A stretch of DNA of 64,000 nt from a virus: positions 1 through 64,000 of the IMG/VR virus record IMGVR_UViG_3300030419_001484, one strand, 5' to 3'. The notes beneath the pieces were generated by a model. That model was not told where the DNA came from, did not search any database, and saw nothing but the letters and a program-made list of their open reading frames with translations. The translations under genes were made by a program, and so were the position numbers. Below are positions 24,000 through 31,663 of this stretch, in pieces. The stretch's first letter is position 1. The number at the start of each line of letters is the position of its first letter.

Positions 24000-24608
24000 T
24001 TGTTTAAAAGTGAATATTTCTCATCACCCATTTATCATGAGGATAAATCAGAATGGTTGAACAAATTAGATAACTTGTGTGACCCATATATCAAAACTGC
24101 TAGAAGTGAACATCAAATTCAAGACGAAGTTGGTGTGGTTTATCACTCCACTAATTTATACAAAGACCCAGAATTTAATTTTTTCCATGATTATATTTTA
24201 AATAAATCTCACTGGTTATTAGATGACATGGGTTATGATGTTAACCATTACAATCTTATCTTTACTGAAAGTTGGGTACAAGAGTTTTCTTTTAATGGTT
24301 GTGGACATCATTGGTTTCATACTCACTCAAACAATCATGTATCTGGATTTTACTTTTTAAAATCTAGTCCAAAAACTTCTAAACCTATGTTTCAAGATCC
24401 CAGAGTTGCACATGCAGCTTTAAAAATAAAAGAAAAAGATGAGTCAACTATAACAAATTCTAATGACTTTATTCATTATCAAGCACCCAGAGGTACATTT
24501 ATATTTTTTCCAGCATACTTATCTCATTCATATAAAGTAGATCATGGGATAGAACCATTTAGATTTATTCATTTTAATTTAAGAGCAGTAGAAAGATATT
24601 TGAATTGA
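24000..24608 (+). CDS. 2OG-Fe(II)-type oxygenase (HxH type)
   Basis: HTHSN, FPAYLSH, FRFIHFN. Confidence 0.85.
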   Translation: MFKSEYFSSPIYHEDKSEWLNKLDNLCDPYIKTARSEHQIQDEVGVVYHSTNLYKDPEFNFFHDYILNKSHWLLDDMGYDVNHYNLIFTESWVQEFSFNGCGHHWFHTHSNNHVSGFYFLKSSPKTSKPMFQDPRVAHAALKIKEKDESTITNSNDFIHYQAPRGTFIFFPAYLSHSYKVDHGIEPFRFIHFNLRAVERYLN

Positions 24609-25207
24609 TAGGAGTTCGTGCAGTTTTTCAAATACCAATGGCTCATTATGAGAATAAAGAACTTACAAATATTTTGAGTGGGTATATTCTATCAAAAGAA
24701 ACAAAGGGTATAGAGTCTGAAGTTGCAACTGGTATTAAACATAATCTAGTTGAATCAAAATTTGATTTTCTTTATGGTAATGCACTTATTGTTAAAGATA
24801 CTAAAGAATGGATTGATAAATGTTTGAAAGAAACAATCAATACAATTCAAATGGAGGATATAGATTATGATATCACTTATAATGAAAGTTGGTATCATGT
24901 AACAAAAACTAATGGTATGCACGAACCACATATACACCCAAGTTGTAGTTGGTGTGGTATATATTATTTGAAGGCTGGGAATGATGATAGTGGACATACA
25001 GTGTTTGAAAATCCAACAAAATCTACATATATAGATCGTGGAAATTTATTCCTAAATAATATGAGTACAATAAGAATAAAACCACAAGATGGATTATTAG
25101 TTTTGTTTCCATCTTATTTAAGTCACTATCAGGCTTTATACAAGGGAACTGAAGATAGAATAGTAGTAGCATTTAATGCTAGTATAGACAAATTAGGAGA
25201 TAACTAA
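24605..25207 (+). CDS. 2OG-Fe(II)-type oxygenase (HxH type)
   Basis: HIHP, FPSYLSHYQ, RIVVAFN. Confidence 0.85.
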   Translation: MIGVRAVFQIPMAHYENKELTNILSGYILSKETKGIESEVATGIKHNLVESKFDFLYGNALIVKDTKEWIDKCLKETINTIQMEDIDYDITYNESWYHVTKTNGMHEPHIHPSCSWCGIYYLKAGNDDSGHTVFENPTKSTYIDRGNLFLNNMSTIRIKPQDGLLVLFPSYLSHYQALYKGTEDRIVVAFNASIDKLGDN

Positions 25208-25731: not shown

Positions 25732-26190
25732 ATGTTTCATAATGTTTTGACTAATGATCATGTTAATGAATTAATTGAGATAGGACAATTTGAGGTAAAG
25801 TATTTTAGGTGTAATAATGTATGGGGTCATCAATCCTTTGCAGACATGAATAAAAAATATGCACACATTAAAAGTGTAAGTGACTTAGTAACTATATTAG
25901 AGAGTTTATATAGAATTACATTTAACAAACATTGTGAGGTAATAAAATTATGGTTTAATATTGTGAAACAAGATAGGGAGGGTTACGATTGGCACACTCA
26001 CTCTAATACGACAGCGATATATTATTTATTCAATACAGAAAATTCTGGGACTTTGATAGATAATGAAAAAGTTTATCAAGTAGATAGTATTGACAATTCT
26101 TTATTGTTTTTACAACCTAATATTAAACATAAAACACCAGATTGGAAAGGAAAAGATCGCATAACAATTGCGATAAATTTTAATGATTGA
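25732..26190 (+). CDS. 2OG-Fe(II)-type oxygenase (HxH type)
   Basis: WHTH, HKTP, RITIAINF. Confidence 0.75.
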   Translation: MFHNVLTNDHVNELIEIGQFEVKYFRCNNVWGHQSFADMNKKYAHIKSVSDLVTILESLYRITFNKHCEVIKLWFNIVKQDREGYDWHTHSNTTAIYYLFNTENSGTLIDNEKVYQVDSIDNSLLFLQPNIKHKTPDWKGKDRITIAINFND

Positions 26191-26855
26191 TTATGAAAAA
26201 ATTTATACACAAAACTATACATCTTGAAGACCTAAATACCAAAACCATAGATAAAAAAAGGTTCTATGAAACTCCAGAGGGTGAACTGTATCCGTCTATT
26301 ACTACAGTTCTATCCGTAAGGAATAAAAAAGGATTATTTGAATGGCGTAAACGAGTTGGTGATGATGTTGCAAATTATGTTGCAAGAACAGCTGCAAATC
26401 GTGGAACTGCCGTTCATCATATGTGTGAGGACTATTTAAACAATGACTTTGATGAAGAAAAACACAAAAAGAAATTTCTCCCCTACTGCCTTTTCAACCA
26501 GTTACGAAAAGAAACTTTGGACAATGTTGACAATATTCATGCTCAAGAGTGTGGGTTATATTCGGACAAATACAAAGTCGCAGGGCGAGTAGATTGTATC
26601 GCAGAATATAATGGTGAACTTTCCATCATTGATTTCAAGACTTCTTCTAAAGAACGAAGTGATGAGTGGAATGAAAACTATTACATACAAGCATCTGCAT
26701 ACGCAGAGATGTTTGAAGAGCGAACTGGAAAACCGATTGAACAAGTCGTTATTCTGGTTGTTACTGAAGATGGAGTAGTACAAGAGTTTATTAAAAAGAA
26801 ACATGATTACCTACCCATGTTAGAGAATGTTATAGAGGAGTTTAATGGAGTATAA
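26187..26855 (+). CDS. Cas4/RecB-like PD-(D/E)XK exonuclease
   Basis: YPSITTVL, RGTAVH, AGRVDCI, IIDFKTS, QASAYAEM. Confidence 0.88.
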   Translation: MIMKKFIHKTIHLEDLNTKTIDKKRFYETPEGELYPSITTVLSVRNKKGLFEWRKRVGDDVANYVARTAANRGTAVHHMCEDYLNNDFDEEKHKKKFLPYCLFNQLRKETLDNVDNIHAQECGLYSDKYKVAGRVDCIAEYNGELSIIDFKTSSKERSDEWNENYYIQASAYAEMFEERTGKPIEQVVILVVTEDGVVQEFIKKKHDYLPMLENVIEEFNGV

Positions 26856-27453
26856 CTTAGATGATTTTATAGGTGTATTTGATGGAGCATTCGATAAAGA
26901 ATATTGTGATAGTTTAATTGATAAGTTTGAGTTTTTATCAAAAATGGGTAAAACTAAAAGTAGGGCAGAGTTTTCTGGTAACCCCCAATTAATTTTAGAC
27001 AACAATATATATTTTGCAATGTCTGACATGACAGATACACAAACAATGGGGTCTAACTTTACTTGGCTTCAAGAATTTAATATAAAAATGTGGGAGTGTT
27101 ATAATATATACACAAAAAAATATGGGACATTAAATAGTGTACAAAGACATCAACTTAACCCAGATGTAAAAATACAAAAAACGAAACCTAGTGAGGGTTA
27201 TCATGTTTGGCATTGTGAGAATGGAAATTTAAGTGATGCATCAAGATTAATACTTGTCATGTTGTATTTAAATGATATTGAAGAGGGTGGAGAAACAGAA
27301 TTTTTATATCAAAGTAGAAGAGTGCAACCAAAAATGGGAAGATTAGTTTTTTGTCCAACATCTTTTACACATACACATAGAGGAAACCCACCACTCAAAG
27401 GAGACAAATATATGTTAAATGGTTGGTTACAATACTATCATGAGATATCATAA
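26845..27453 (+). CDS. 2OG-Fe(II) oxygenase, prolyl-4-hydroxylase-like
   Basis: GYHVWHCE, YLNDIEEGGETEF, HTHRG. Confidence 0.88.
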   Translation: MEYNLDDFIGVFDGAFDKEYCDSLIDKFEFLSKMGKTKSRAEFSGNPQLILDNNIYFAMSDMTDTQTMGSNFTWLQEFNIKMWECYNIYTKKYGTLNSVQRHQLNPDVKIQKTKPSEGYHVWHCENGNLSDASRLILVMLYLNDIEEGGETEFLYQSRRVQPKMGRLVFCPTSFTHTHRGNPPLKGDKYMLNGWLQYYHEIS

Positions 27454-27707
27454 TGTTAGATAAATTTTTTATAATAGTTACAATGGTCACTGTAAATCCA
27501 GAGTTAGGAACTGATCTATATGCATTTAAAAAACCATATGATACAAAAGAAGTTTGTGTAAAAAATTTAGAGTTAAATTATAATAAATACTTTACAGCCG
27601 CATATAATAATTATAAAGGAAAACTAAGTCCAGATAAAGCATATTGTATATCTGGTGAACTATTAAAACAAGTATTCGAAGGTAACATAACAAGTAACGA
27701 TATATGA
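27453..27707 (+). CDS. small exported Cys-containing protein
   Basis: hydrophobic N-terminus, two Cys. Confidence 0.55.
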   Translation: MLDKFFIIVTMVTVNPELGTDLYAFKKPYDTKEVCVKNLELNYNKYFTAAYNNYKGKLSPDKAYCISGELLKQVFEGNITSNDI

Positions 27708-28015
27708 TAACATTAACTGAAAACGCAAAAGAATATCTAACAGATATGGTATCCAAGTCAGATGATACATATGCAAGATTATCTGTCAAGGGTGGTGGTT
27801 GTGCTGGTTTCGAATACAAGTGGGAAACTACAGACACAACCGAAAAAGGAACACTCATAGATGATGTCTTGGTGTTAGATACTATGGCTGAGATGTTTCT
27901 ACTTGGTTGCACTGTGGACTACATAAAAGAATTTGGTGGTTCTTACTTAACAGTTAAGAATCCTAACGCACACTCCTCATGTGGGTGTGGAACAAGTTTC
28001 TCAATTAAGACTTGA
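27704..28015 (+). CDS. iscA: HesB/IscA A-type Fe-S carrier protein
   Basis: ITLTENA, GGGCAGFEY, NPNAHSSCGCGTSF. Confidence 0.92.
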   Translation: MITLTENAKEYLTDMVSKSDDTYARLSVKGGGCAGFEYKWETTDTTEKGTLIDDVLVLDTMAEMFLLGCTVDYIKEFGGSYLTVKNPNAHSSCGCGTSFSIKT

Positions 28016-28046
28016 CAAACGGAACGAATCATGTTATAAATATAGT

Positions 28047-28110
28047 ATAGTTCGTTGATACGGATTGAAAGATGGACAGGACTTGGGTGCGATACCCAAC
28101 ACCTCCACCA
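28047..28110 (+). ncRNA. ssrA: permuted tmRNA, acceptor (3') piece
   Basis: T-arm TTGGG-TGCGATA-CCCAA then CACCTCC-A-CCA; TAGTTC and TGATACG pair with GAACTA and CGTATCG in the coding piece; 5' boundary approximate. Confidence 0.88.
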
Positions 28111-28113
28111 AAC

Positions 28114-28228
28114 ACTCGTCCAGTACAACGCCTTTGTAGTCGTAATGCACATGGTAAATTACTCACGGCAGATCGAACACGAATGGTAAGACATTTTAGG
28201 ATTTATCTGGTGTGGCGACCAGACGAGT
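28114..28228 (+). ncRNA. unidentified multi-way-junction RNA inside the tmRNA intervening segment
   Basis: ACTCGTC/GACGAGT closing helix, four internal stems, complementary loops CGCC/GGCG. Confidence 0.55.
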
Positions 28229-28287
28229 ACCTCGCTAAAAGGAGATTAATATGATTTTAGATAATACAATAATGGGGGGTCAAGACG

Positions 28288-28404
28288 ATGAAGAACCCTC
28301 TAGTGCAAACAATAAGTAAGTGGATGTTTAGAGCCTACATTGCATGGAGCATATGTGCAGACATCATAGTGATAGGTGGTATCATATACCTAATCTTTTT
28401 TTAG
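28288..28404 (+). CDS. 38-aa membrane peptide inside the tmRNA intervening segment
   Basis: MKNPLVQTISKWMFRAYIAWSICADIIVIGGIIYLIFF*; GGGGG upstream; stop abuts tmRNA G1. Confidence 0.6.
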   Translation: MKNPLVQTISKWMFRAYIAWSICADIIVIGGIIYLIFF

Positions 28405-28573
28405 GGGGGTGAAATAGGATCGACTGACGTTGAATAGAAAAGTGGAGAACTATCGGTTTACCTCGTATCGGTTAAAAAAACTAAACGCAAACGATGATTT
28501 TGCACCTGTAGATTACGCACTAGCTGCTTAATCGTACTGAGTTCGGTGGGTACTTGGAAACAGAAACCCACCA
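28405..28573 (+). ncRNA. ssrA: permuted tmRNA, coding (5') piece with tag ANDDFAPVDYALAA
   Basis: GGGGGTGAAATAGGATCGAC start; G3:U70 with acceptor piece; tag ORF 28487-28531; terminal GGTGGGT/ACCCACC hairpin. Confidence 0.92.
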
Positions 28574-28604
28574 CAGTTTCAGAGTTTCGCTGACGGGCGA
28601 AAAC

Positions 28605-28789
28605 GTGTCGTGCAAGGAAGAGATTCTCACCAGAGGGTCGAACTTGATTAGTTAGAGGTGGTACTCAGGCATGGTTGCAGAAATGCGTTGTGTCACATCA
28701 ATCTACCGATTGGAACTAGGTTCTGAAAGTATGAAAGAATGGTATCTTGGTCTTTCAGTTGTAGGTGTTAACCTTAGTCCTACCGACAC
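28605..28789 (+). ncRNA. manA-like large structured RNA
   Basis: GTGTCG/CGACAC closure; ACTTGA, GTGGTACTCAGG, CACATC, GTTCT, GGTATC, GTTGTAGGT..TCCTAC recalled as manA-motif-like. Confidence 0.6.
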
Positions 28790-28911
28790 AAATTAATGAT
28801 GCCTATGCGAATAGGTTCGGTTGAAAAAAATCGGTAAGATCATTAAGGGTCACTACTTAATAAGTGCGTGTGGGGTCATGGTTAACCCCACATCTTATAA
28901 ATGGAGTTATT

Positions 28912-29124
28912 ATGCAAAATACAAAGACGTTCTCACTTGAGATTGAAAAGATGGCCCAAGAAAAATCCATAACACACATGGATGCAGTTTTAGAATATTG
29001 TAAGACAAAAGAATTAGAACCAGAGTCAGTTACAAGACTCATATCAAAAAGTCTAAAAGATAAGATAGAAGCAAACGCAAGAGATTTGAACTATCTACCC
29101 AATCAAGCAAAGTTACCAATATAG
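28912..29124 (+). CDS. 33: late transcription co-activator gp33
   Basis: FSLEIEK..MDAVLEYC..LISKSLKDKIEANARDLNYL; synteny with 59 and 32. Confidence 0.88.
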   Translation: MQNTKTFSLEIEKMAQEKSITHMDAVLEYCKTKELEPESVTRLISKSLKDKIEANARDLNYLPNQAKLPI

Positions 29125-29127
29125 TTA

Positions 29128-29718
29128 ATGTCACAATCAATAGATATCTATCTAACCTATTGTGCAATGAAGGCTCACTTTGGAAAAGGTGACTATGACT
29201 TTGTTAAGTTCAATGGTAAGACAAAGGTATCAAGAGACTCTTTCTGGAAAAGAAAAGACAGAGTATGGTTCGTGATGTTGGGTAGAAAGTATAACTCATC
29301 TCTCATAGAGAGTGTTGAAGATTATCTACTCGCAAACTTCTTGGTAGACAACAAAGGATATATAGGTAATTTTAATGACCAGAATTATTTTGATTGGATG
29401 ACTAGAATGTCAAGATTAGAAACATTATTTAAAAACGAAGCAACTAAATTATTTGAGGATGGGAGTTTAGACGTATTGAATGTTCCAGACAACTCTCACC
29501 CAAAACTTCTCAAAGAATATCTTGGTAAAAGAATATCACTAGAAACTATGGTGATACTAGATGGTATCTTTGACTACAGTTCAAAGTGGGATAAGAAAAT
29601 GAATGATGATATCATGTGGCCTGATGTAAAAAAACTTATAGAAAATTATAAAAAGTTCTTGACATATCCACATGATTCGTGTAAGATGGTAGTATTAAAT
29701 TTAACAAAAATGGAGTAG
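29128..29718 (+). CDS. 59: helicase loader gp59
   Basis: YCAMKAHF..YDFVKFNGK..KRKDR..ISLET. Confidence 0.88.
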   Translation: MSQSIDIYLTYCAMKAHFGKGDYDFVKFNGKTKVSRDSFWKRKDRVWFVMLGRKYNSSLIESVEDYLLANFLVDNKGYIGNFNDQNYFDWMTRMSRLETLFKNEATKLFEDGSLDVLNVPDNSHPKLLKEYLGKRISLETMVILDGIFDYSSKWDKKMNDDIMWPDVKKLIENYKKFLTYPHDSCKMVVLNLTKME

Positions 29719-31587: not shown

Positions 31588-31663
31588 GCTGGTGTAGCTC
31601 AATTGGTAGAGCAACTGATTTGTAATCAGTAGGTTGGGAGTTCGAGTCTCTTCACCAGCACCA
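31588..31663 (+). tRNA. tRNA-Thr(UGU)
   Basis: 76-nt cloverleaf, anticodon loop TTTGTAA, TTCGA T-loop, encoded CCA. Confidence 0.96.

Follow-up and report, generated by a model that had tools for sequence, protein, structure and literature searches.

A two-piece tmRNA gene of an uncultured marine phage with a predicted protein-coding intervening segment

Introduction

Two-piece transfer-messenger RNA (tmRNA) genes of the alphaproteobacterial type carry the acceptor piece ahead of the coding piece, and the spacer between the two has hitherto been treated as a disposable loop. In the cellular gene of Caulobacter, the subject of work by Keiler, Shapiro and Williams in 2000, this spacer is reportedly a short hairpin that is removed and for which no coding function is known. 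Annotation pipelines assign the entire locus to 'tmRNA'. The gene described here lies at positions 28,049 to 28,575 of a viral DNA stretch of 64,000 nucleotides (nt), the window, which comprises positions 1 to 64,000 of IMG/VR record IMGVR_UViG_3300030419_001484. It is a two-piece tmRNA gene whose intervening segment carries a conserved protein gene, with a Shine-Dalgarno sequence (SD), a short leader open reading frame (ORF) and an ORF for a membrane peptide of 38 amino acids (aa). The reading favoured here, with moderate confidence, is that the phage ssrA gene of the window is functional and belongs to the circularly permuted, two-piece alpha type, and that its transcription unit doubles as the expression unit of the nested small-protein gene.

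The tmRNA itself is not new in this group of phages, because Buchholz et al. (2022) reported a two-piece, alpha-type ssrA gene in the Methylophilales phage Melnitz and permuted tmRNA genes in 17 of 47 related contigs (PMC9004378). The same study, in which the intervening segment is not mentioned, counted 53 two-piece tmRNAs in a set of 18,146 phage genomes; marine or aquatic samples were their main source (PMC9004378). Additional sequence in tmRNA genes has been recorded elsewhere: one nominally archaeal metagenome-assembled genome (MAG) has an intact tRNA-Ala gene in the spacer of a permuted tmRNA gene, which was called 'a unique feature', the longest permuted tmRNA gene (1152 bp) has a repetitive element in its spacer, and group I introns, sometimes with homing-endonuclease ORFs, occur in the tmRNA T-loop (PMC11915505). 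The two spacer cases concern an RNA gene and a repeat, each found once, whereas the cassette considered here is protein-coding by all indications, recurs in hundreds of phage genes and bears the signature of purifying selection. The introns are similar in that they, too, can place an ORF within a tmRNA gene, in a part that the mature RNA lacks. However, the extra sequence of the window lies between the acceptor CCA and G1, the first base of the coding piece, instead of the T-loop, and no intron family was found in it at Rfam gathering thresholds; moreover, its removal would use tRNA-processing enzymes rather than self-splicing, and its product would be a 38-aa membrane peptide and not a nuclease.

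Three further systems invite comparison. In mitochondrial transcripts, RNase P cleavage of a flanking tRNA-like structure sets the 3' end of an mRNA, with the stop codon abutting the cut (tRNA punctuation). The spacer layout may be analogous, but it is found in a bacteriophage, with a tmRNA as the flanking structure, and nothing points to completion of stop codons by polyadenylation. The hok/mok/sok module resembles the cassette in its small hydrophobic peptide, overlapping leader ORF and 5'-3' fold-back, and ArfA in the RNase-made 3' end of its mRNA and in a product whose fate could depend on tmRNA; unlike these two systems, the cassette offers no sequence similarity, no conserved antisense promoter and no sign of truncation or tagging. 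Full-text literature searches, which did not cover subscription journals, found no account of protein genes located in the intervening segment of a tmRNA, and both the spacer content and the peptide family appear to be new and undescribed.

Results

The permuted tmRNA gene

The permuted tmRNA model RF04321 matches the window at 28049-28531 with 100.5 bits (cut-off 47) over model positions 1-213 of 213, and alpha_tmRNA (RF01849), the Rfam scan proposed in a preliminary description of this DNA, matches at 28008-28575 with 92.8 bits (cut-off 50), again over the full model (positions 1-355 of 355). The strand CACCUCC-A-CCA (28100-28110) pairs with GGGGGUG at 28405-28411, which places G1 at 28405 and includes the G3:U70 pair. 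The preliminary description had proposed a permuted phage tmRNA with its CCA end at 28110, G1 at 28405, G3:U70 and the tag ANDDFAPVDYALAA, and Rfam and the sequence agree with it to the base. Tags of relatives read ANDN...(Y/F)(A/R)LAA, and in the acceptor stems of 36 relatives G3:U70 (a U:G pair) is invariant while two other pairs covary. The acceptor piece is 97% identical over 34 nt to the tmRNA of the Pelagibacter myophage HTVC008M; in a blastn search with the locus, only HTVC008M (T-arm) and the phage Mosig (manA RNA) gave matches out of 50,697 phage records.

With the alphaproteobacterial genes (RF01849) the locus shares the order of acceptor piece, spacer and coding piece, the encoded CCA, G3:U70, an acceptor stem formed in trans, a 3' hairpin of the coding piece and a UGAUG-type leader before G1. 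It differs from the Caulobacter type in that its spacer is 294 nt long, as had been proposed, and holds a conserved protein gene. ARAGORN, the other scan suggested beforehand, called no tmRNA gene in the window, probably on account of the long spacer; its sole call was a tRNA-Thr (TGT) at 31588-31663, directly past gp32. A tRNA also lies about 1.5-2 kb downstream of the tmRNA gene in each of three related loci (L158, L173, L307). The coordinates of the features are collected in Table 1.

Table 1. Features in and around the tmRNA gene, in window coordinates.
Feature	Position	Strand	Remarks
IscA-type Fe-S protein	27704-28015		T4-like neighbour
Promoter TTGACA-N17-TATAAATA	28012-28042	+	sigma-70-like -35/-10 pair overlapping T4-type late-promoter octamer; GAATC within N17
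tmRNA acceptor piece	28049-28110	+	3' half of tRNA-like domain: T-arm, acceptor 3' strand CACCUCC, discriminator A, encoded CCA 28108-28110; from Rfam alignments
Intervening segment	28111-28404	+	294 nt; ancestral hairpin, then ORF cassette
Ancestral spacer hairpin	28111-28230	+	closed by ACUCGUC 28114-28120 and GACGAGU 28222-28228
Junction ACCUCGCU	28229-28236	+	resembles leftover second acceptor 3' end (ACCUCCACC) ahead of AAAGGAGAUU; from sequence comparison
Shine-Dalgarno AGGAG	28240-28244	+	
Leader ORF, MILDNTIMGGQDDEEPSSANNK	28251-28319	+	22 codons; overlaps peptide ORF by 32 nt; peptide in +1 frame
Gene of 38-aa single-helix membrane peptide, MKNPLVQTISKWMFRAYIAWSICADIIVIGGIIYLIFF	28288-28404	+	G-run ribosome-binding site 28274-28279; TAG 28402-28404 abuts G1
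3' arm of fold-back helix	28380-28404	+	encodes C-terminus YLIFF and stop; pairs with SD and leader-start region 28235-28255
tmRNA coding piece	28405-28575	+	acceptor 5' strand GGGGGUG, mRNA-like region, 3' terminal hairpin GGUGGGU...ACCCACC
Tag reading frame ANDDFAPVDYALAA, then TAA	28487-28531	+	GCA (alanine) resume codon; ALAA-type end
manA RNA motif	28585-28793	+	RF01745, 66.1 bits, cut-off 55.2; between tmRNA and gp33, separate from tmRNA
gp33-like late-transcription coactivator	28864-29124	+	PF16805, E = 1.2e-17; downstream neighbour of tmRNA
gp59 helicase loader	29128-29718		T4-like neighbour

A conserved membrane-peptide gene in the spacer

Several lines of comparative evidence argue that the 38-aa ORF is a real, conserved protein-coding gene. 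In an ungapped 28-codon core of 58 unique sequences, pN/pS is 0.25 in frame as against 1.17 and 2.16 in the other frames, synonymous sites are near saturation (pS 0.62, pN 0.155), and the entropy summed per codon position is 17, 7 and 28. A profile search retrieved 251 clusters at 90% identity, of which the named ones are all 'hypothetical' and none has a Pfam domain; 85 representatives match the peptide at 50% identity, and a search with the peptide alone found it encoded in 344 IMG/VR viral loci. Members are about 34-48 aa long and follow the pattern Y..WS..AD.....G...L with a C-terminal F, to which the window peptide conforms; Y17, W20, S21, A24, D25, G31 and L35 are invariant, and the window peptide also has F38. 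In L401 and L402, independent contigs from other metagenomes, the peptide differs from that of the window mostly by conservative amino-acid replacements. A membrane ORF of 38 aa had been noted in the preliminary description, and its conservation, the lack of which would have counted against that description, is now apparent from 77 distinct cassettes in addition to the clusters and loci mentioned.

AlphaFold2 predicts one helix over residues 4-37 (pLDDT 92). The N-terminus is basic, the net charge is +3 and the C-terminal 19 residues have a Kyte-Doolittle mean of 2.2. The peptide is presumably inserted into a membrane. The best guess as to its role is that it acts on membranes as a holin-like or toxin-like modulator and is produced together with the tmRNA. 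Pfam and PHROGs contain no family for it or for other spacer ORFs, the only match being a sub-threshold one to DUF2542 (18 bits), and among the 50,697 deposited phage records neither tblastn of the peptide nor blastn of the Melnitz-like locus L146 gave a match. Among about 185,000 species genomes of cellular organisms the peptide occurs in only three, all of them marine MAG contigs; because it is so rare there, these contigs are suspected to be misbinned phage DNA.

The position of the gene was assessed in the best 80 of the 344 loci, which had been found by the peptide alone and hence blind to tmRNA context. In 73 of them it lies between the acceptor CCA and G1, in L394 likewise, with the variant CCUUCACCA; five loci are cut by contig ends and one (L338) has the gene outside, which amounts to nesting in 74 of 75 complete loci. 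The gap between stop codon and G1 is 1 nt in nearly all cassettes, 2 nt in L155 and absent in the window, L401 and L402. A TAG ending at 28404, directly before G1, had been claimed for the window; this holds, and the stop abuts the predicted RNase P site in every nested copy.

Anatomy of the cassette

A pattern scan for CCA followed by AAAG(G/A)AGAUU, together with the loci found earlier, yielded 158 distinct spacers, 77 of them distinct cassettes. The cassette corresponds to the 3' 170 nt of the window spacer and comprises the SD, the short leader ORF and the peptide ORF. All 77 cassettes have AAAG(G/A)AGAUU and, 10-15 nt from the start of AAGGAG, a start codon (ATG, GTG or TTG). In typical cassettes AAAGGAGAUU follows the CCA directly and the SD starts 3 nt past it; the window instead has a 120-nt hairpin between CCA and SD. 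A leader ORF, typically of 18-28 codons and with an N-terminal sequence that is not conserved, is present in 70 of the 77, and in six cassettes the start codon behind the SD opens the peptide frame itself, so that the strong SD would drive the peptide directly. The peptide ORF has a G-rich ribosome-binding site of its own 8-12 nt upstream of its start. The AGGAG-led ORF of 22 codons seen earlier in the window thus exists, and its position is conserved; its sequence is not, except where it overlaps the start of the peptide.

RNAalifold on 36 precursors extends the 7-bp acceptor stem by a 13-bp helix between CA-AAAGGAGAUUA and the last codons of the peptide (YLVFF and stop). In this helix 99.7% of cells are paired, as against 55-69% when the partner is slid, and the fold-back pairing is conserved. 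The fold-back fold of the window has z = -2.15, and its helix is longer than the consensus and also covers the leader start codon. According to these models, the SD would be sequestered by the 3' end of its own mRNA, in a helix that doubles as the leader-trailer helix usual in permuted pre-tmRNA.

On the minus strand, opposite the leader ORF, there is a sigma-70-like site, TTGACC-18-TAAAAT (28254-28283; 10 of 12 matches). It is probably due to chance, since an antisense promoter at this place was found in only 3 of 72 related cassettes, and a conserved promoter for a Sok-like antisense RNA was rejected as a candidate.

The spacer as a gene slot

Syntenic loci were collected through the gp59 neighbour and compared with the window. 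The 28 syntenic tmRNA genes divide into 13 with the cassette (counting L164), 11 with a hairpin, two minimal ones and two with other ORFs, and spacer lengths among relatives range from 18 to 499 nt. In the closest relatives (L122, L123, L125, L126 and L128; 81-94% nt identity in the flanks) the spacer is a 50-nt hairpin without an ORF, and in HTVC008M a hairpin of 49 nt. L127 and L130 have a spacer of 102 nt that is homologous only to window 28111-28228, while spacers of about 160 nt in L155, L172, L173, L194, L198, L146 and others are homologous only to window 28237-28404. Both modules stand in tandem, with an identical junction, in the window, L401 and L402. The minimal spacers (L156, L178) measure 18 nt. 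At the other extreme, the 380-nt spacers of L158 and L159 have an added 72-aa ORF ahead of the cassette, between repeats of CCAAAAGGAGAUU, and those of L131 and L132 (=L045), 499 nt long, hold an unrelated 34-aa ORF and a 120-aa multi-helix membrane protein.

The 5' module of the window spacer is homologous to the whole 102-nt spacer of L127, L130, L403 and L404. A 'structured domain' had been proposed at this place; the fold of 28111-28236 is not more stable than that of shuffled sequences (z = -0.5), and the supposed domain is merely the ancestral spacer hairpin, which in L127, L130 and L403 makes up the entire spacer. At the place corresponding to the junction, cassette-type genes read CCUCCACCA joined to AAAGGAGAUU. 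The window reads ACCUCGCU joined to AAAAGGAGAUU, which looks like the remnant of a second acceptor 3' end and therefore suggests that the spacer arose by recombination of a hairpin-type gene with a cassette-type gene.

Melnitz belongs to the same group as the window phage (Kyanoviridae-like marine myoviruses) and has an alpha-type permuted tmRNA gene followed directly by the genes of the gp33 coactivator and the gp59 loader, the same type of promoter and a tag, ANDNYVPVDYALAA, similar to that of the window. It differs in its spacer, which is 142 nt long and contains another SD-led ORF, of the KIPKYLSG family common to L131. In the Melnitz locus (L400; EXVC044M, MZ577097, 2122-2263) this ORF reads MFKWLSK...KIPKYLSGTRSVYD..., has its homologue in the first of the spacer ORFs of L131/L132 and has no stop codon before G1; the GenBank record labels the whole locus 'tmRNA' and leaves the ORF unannotated.

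Other ORFs were seen in further spacers. L307 and L311 have a 277-nt spacer with an 82-aa membrane protein behind the same AAAGGAGAUU. No Pfam or PHROG family was found for the spacer ORFs of L131/L132, L307/L311 and L158/L159. A scan of viral contigs for the acceptor arm, independent of the gp59 neighbour, added L056, L086 and L117, with spacers of 182, 180 and 171 nt and SD-led ORFs of 52-55 aa, one of them basic with a CxxC motif, which stop at the conserved UGA of the UGAUG ahead of G1, and L034, with a 104-nt spacer and a zinc-ribbon-like frame that has no start codon. In L218, L255 and L312 the true acceptor end is preceded, at a distance of about 750 nt, by a second ...TCCACCA, and their apparent spacers of 860-912 nt are spurious.

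Taken as a whole, the spacer appears to serve as a gene slot in the relatives, some of them, including the cultured Melnitz, with unrelated ORFs. The earlier suggestion that it is more than a discarded loop is thus supported by the comparison of spacers across related phages that had been called for: many relatives have cargo, the conserved peptide cassette is nested in 13 of the 28 syntenic genes, and unrelated ORFs occupy others.

Promoter and genome context

The promoter pattern upstream of the tmRNA gene has one match, where 0.01 would be expected by chance, and the layout TTGAC(A/T)-N17-TATAAATA recurs upstream of the tmRNA in L401-L404, L394, L338 and Melnitz. An overlap of sigma-70, GANTC and late-promoter elements had been proposed. 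The overlap of the sigma-70-like and late elements stands, and the layout recurs in relatives up to Melnitz; GANTC is absent from L394 and Melnitz, and was rejected as a conserved promoter feature because it is not kept beyond close relatives.

The source record is a 73.8-kb IMG/VR viral contig, about 48% complete and with a GC content of about 35%. The tmRNA gene stands in T4-like surroundings, with an IscA-type gene upstream and gp33, gp59 and then gp32 downstream; the gp59 protein is 40% identical to that of Melnitz, and the nearest cultured phages are Melnitz and the Pelagibacter myophages HTVC008M and Mosig. Because of this gene set and these nearest phages, the window phage is placed in the marine pelagimyophage/Melnitz-like group, as an uncultured member. 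No terminator-like site was found between the tmRNA gene and gp33 in a scan of 27600-29300. The manA RNA that lies there is also present in Mosig and L122, and behaves as an indel module: L127/L130 and contigs from RNA libraries have a 269-nt gap at its place, and in Melnitz a glutamine riboswitch (RF01739) follows the tmRNA at this position. Farther upstream, the ORF at 26845-27453 encodes a 2OG-Fe(II) oxygenase (Pfam; blastn to cyanophage and pelagiphage genes), and three more ORFs are located at 24000-24608, 24605-25207 and 25732-26190.

Discussion

If the tmRNA transcription unit indeed doubles as an expression unit, the conserved promoter would give rise to a single precursor of acceptor piece, 294-nt spacer and coding piece, and the two tmRNA pieces would join by acceptor-stem pairing with its G3:U70. 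Host RNase P would cut at G1 (28405) and 3' maturation would trim to the CCA (28110), whereby the spacer RNA would be freed. Its 3' 170 nt could function as a compact mRNA with the SD, the leader ORF and, overlapping it in the +1 frame, the ORF for the N-terminally basic peptide, whose stop codon would be the last triplet before the RNase P site. Since the SD and the leader start would be paired with the mRNA's own 3' end, in a helix that extends the acceptor stem, translation of the leader or opening of the helix might gate peptide synthesis. Processing at the canonical sites, excision of the spacer as an mRNA and translation of the peptide, be it from the precursor or the excised RNA, are inferred, as are the three products and the coupling to ribosome rescue that the preliminary description had envisaged. 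Of four RNA-library runs examined, two, both from one study, have contigs that bridge 28177-28521 in a relative that is about 91% identical. These data are contigs without ends or strand, which may include DNA, and they are weak evidence, showing only that spacer and coding piece are found joined.

Some observations weigh against the favoured reading. The RNA-library contigs show neither RNA ends nor processing, nor translation. In the helices, compensatory double changes are confined to the acceptor stem, whereas changes in the fold-back helix are one-sided. A search of the 73.8-kb contig, complete to about 48%, found no SmpB gene, and the tmRNA must therefore use the SmpB of the host. The cassette is wholly absent from the closest relatives (L122, L123, L125, L126 and L128), and is therefore dispensable. 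Furthermore, it occurs outside any tmRNA gene in L338, L406 and L407. In L338, the peptide gene (1170-1300) lies just upstream of the promoter of a tmRNA gene with a hairpin spacer. L407 (1501-1611), on a 'Rickettsiales' MAG contig, is a standalone cassette that has an alpha tmRNA in opposite orientation about 0.9 kb away and retains a short overlapping leader ORF, and L406 (1501-1593), on a 'Saprospiraceae' MAG contig, is a standalone cassette with no tmRNA match within the 2.2 kb examined; the peptides of both have a longer C-terminus of the ...LLLGDIKISF type. From these standalone copies it follows that nesting is not obligatory, and the cassette is best regarded as an autonomous module that overwhelmingly resides in or beside tmRNA genes.

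Such mobility would fit a pure passenger, i.e., a small accessory gene ('moron') that enters a permissive, strongly transcribed slot at the repeat CCAAAAGGAGAUU and is translated mainly from the unprocessed precursor, its peptide being unrelated to tmRNA function and the excised spacer being degraded as in Caulobacter. The range of spacers (18-499 nt; 13 cassette, 11 hairpin, two minimal and two other-ORF genes among the 28 syntenic ones), the unrelated slot ORFs of L131 (34 and 120 aa), L307 (82 aa), L158 (72 aa, extra), L056, L086, L117 and Melnitz, the L158 insert between duplicated copies of CCAAAAGGAGAUU, the standalone copies and the lack of the cassette in the closest relatives are all in line with this possibility. 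It is nevertheless considered unlikely on balance, if by no means far-fetched: the blind search placed the peptide gene in or directly beside a tmRNA gene in essentially every complete case, which is tighter than expected of a random moron, every nested copy has its stop codon 0-2 nt away from G1 and the SD is built into the acceptor-extension helix. That the ORFs might be mere chance frames in a spacer kept as structured RNA only, or the composite spacer an assembly chimera, has already been largely refuted and is given very little credence. It is true that the ORFs are short, that the 3' end of the peptide ORF doubles as a helix arm and that ARAGORN does not call the gene; but selection is frame-specific (pN/pS 0.25, with pS near saturation at 0.62), all 77 cassettes keep the start codon and SD, the peptide is predicted by gene callers in 251 clusters, and the same composite junction is found in L401 and L402, which stem from other metagenomes, and in the RNA-library contigs.

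The position of the stop codon raises the question of a coupling to trans-translation. The substrates of tmRNA are ribosomes whose mRNA extends by at most a few nucleotides 3' of the A site, and the control of ArfA relies on this. An mRNA cut by RNase P would end on its stop codon or 1 nt past it, and 3' nibbling would turn it into a non-stop message, so that the peptide would be tagged and destroyed as long as tmRNA-SmpB is ample and would accumulate once rescue is saturated, in the manner of an ArfA-like sensor that ties the load on rescue to a membrane-active peptide. The stop lies 0-2 nt before G1 in all nested cassettes, the excised RNA of Melnitz, with no stop in its spacer ORF, would be a non-stop message, and peptide gene and tmRNA gene are tightly linked. 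The UGAUG before G1 is, however, also conserved in spacers that have no ORF, and the stop position may for this reason be inherited rather than selected; in addition, standalone copies retain the same C-terminus with ordinary downstream sequence, and release factors read terminal stop codons efficiently in vitro. Coupling of this kind is accordingly rated as rather doubtful. A type I toxin module of the hok/mok kind, in which translation of a hydrophobic toxin depends on a leader ORF and the mRNA is kept inactive by 5'-3' fold-back, is a distinctly improbable account. The single hydrophobic helix of the 38-aa peptide, the overlapping leader ORF with a strong SD in 70 of 77 cassettes and the pairing of the 5' SD with the 3' end do recall such modules, yet an antisense promoter opposite the leader is not conserved (3 of 72 cassettes), no Pfam or PHROG match, Hok included, was obtained, the strong SD drives the peptide directly in six cassettes, which would be odd for a potent toxin, and the fold-back is the usual acceptor-extension helix of a permuted pre-tmRNA.

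The favoured reading, a phage ssrA gene whose transcription unit also expresses a nested small protein, has consequences for annotation as well as for phage biology. Genes of this kind escape ARAGORN, and conflicting calls from gene callers and RNA annotators are to be expected at these loci. A gene family would thereby have remained hidden: marine myophages of a widespread family, related to phages of SAR11 and OM43, appear to use the tmRNA spacer as a gene slot, and a single family of small membrane proteins, unannotated in databases, fills about half of the syntenic genes sampled. The locus may be a rare example, in a virus of bacteria, of a protein gene bounded by processing sites of the tRNA type, and it raises the testable question of whether the fate of the product is tied to the flanking rescue system. 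Experiments are possible, as Melnitz, which bears a different spacer ORF, is available in culture together with its host. The most far-reaching version, which is speculative and quite unlikely, is that of a bifunctional pre-tmRNA, in which processing of the rescue RNA makes an mRNA that ends on its own stop codon (in Melnitz, on none) and the peptide is made or destroyed according to trans-translation capacity. If true, the phage would thereby possess its own means of sensing translational stress, with an output at the membrane, for example the timing of lysis or the shut-down of the host.

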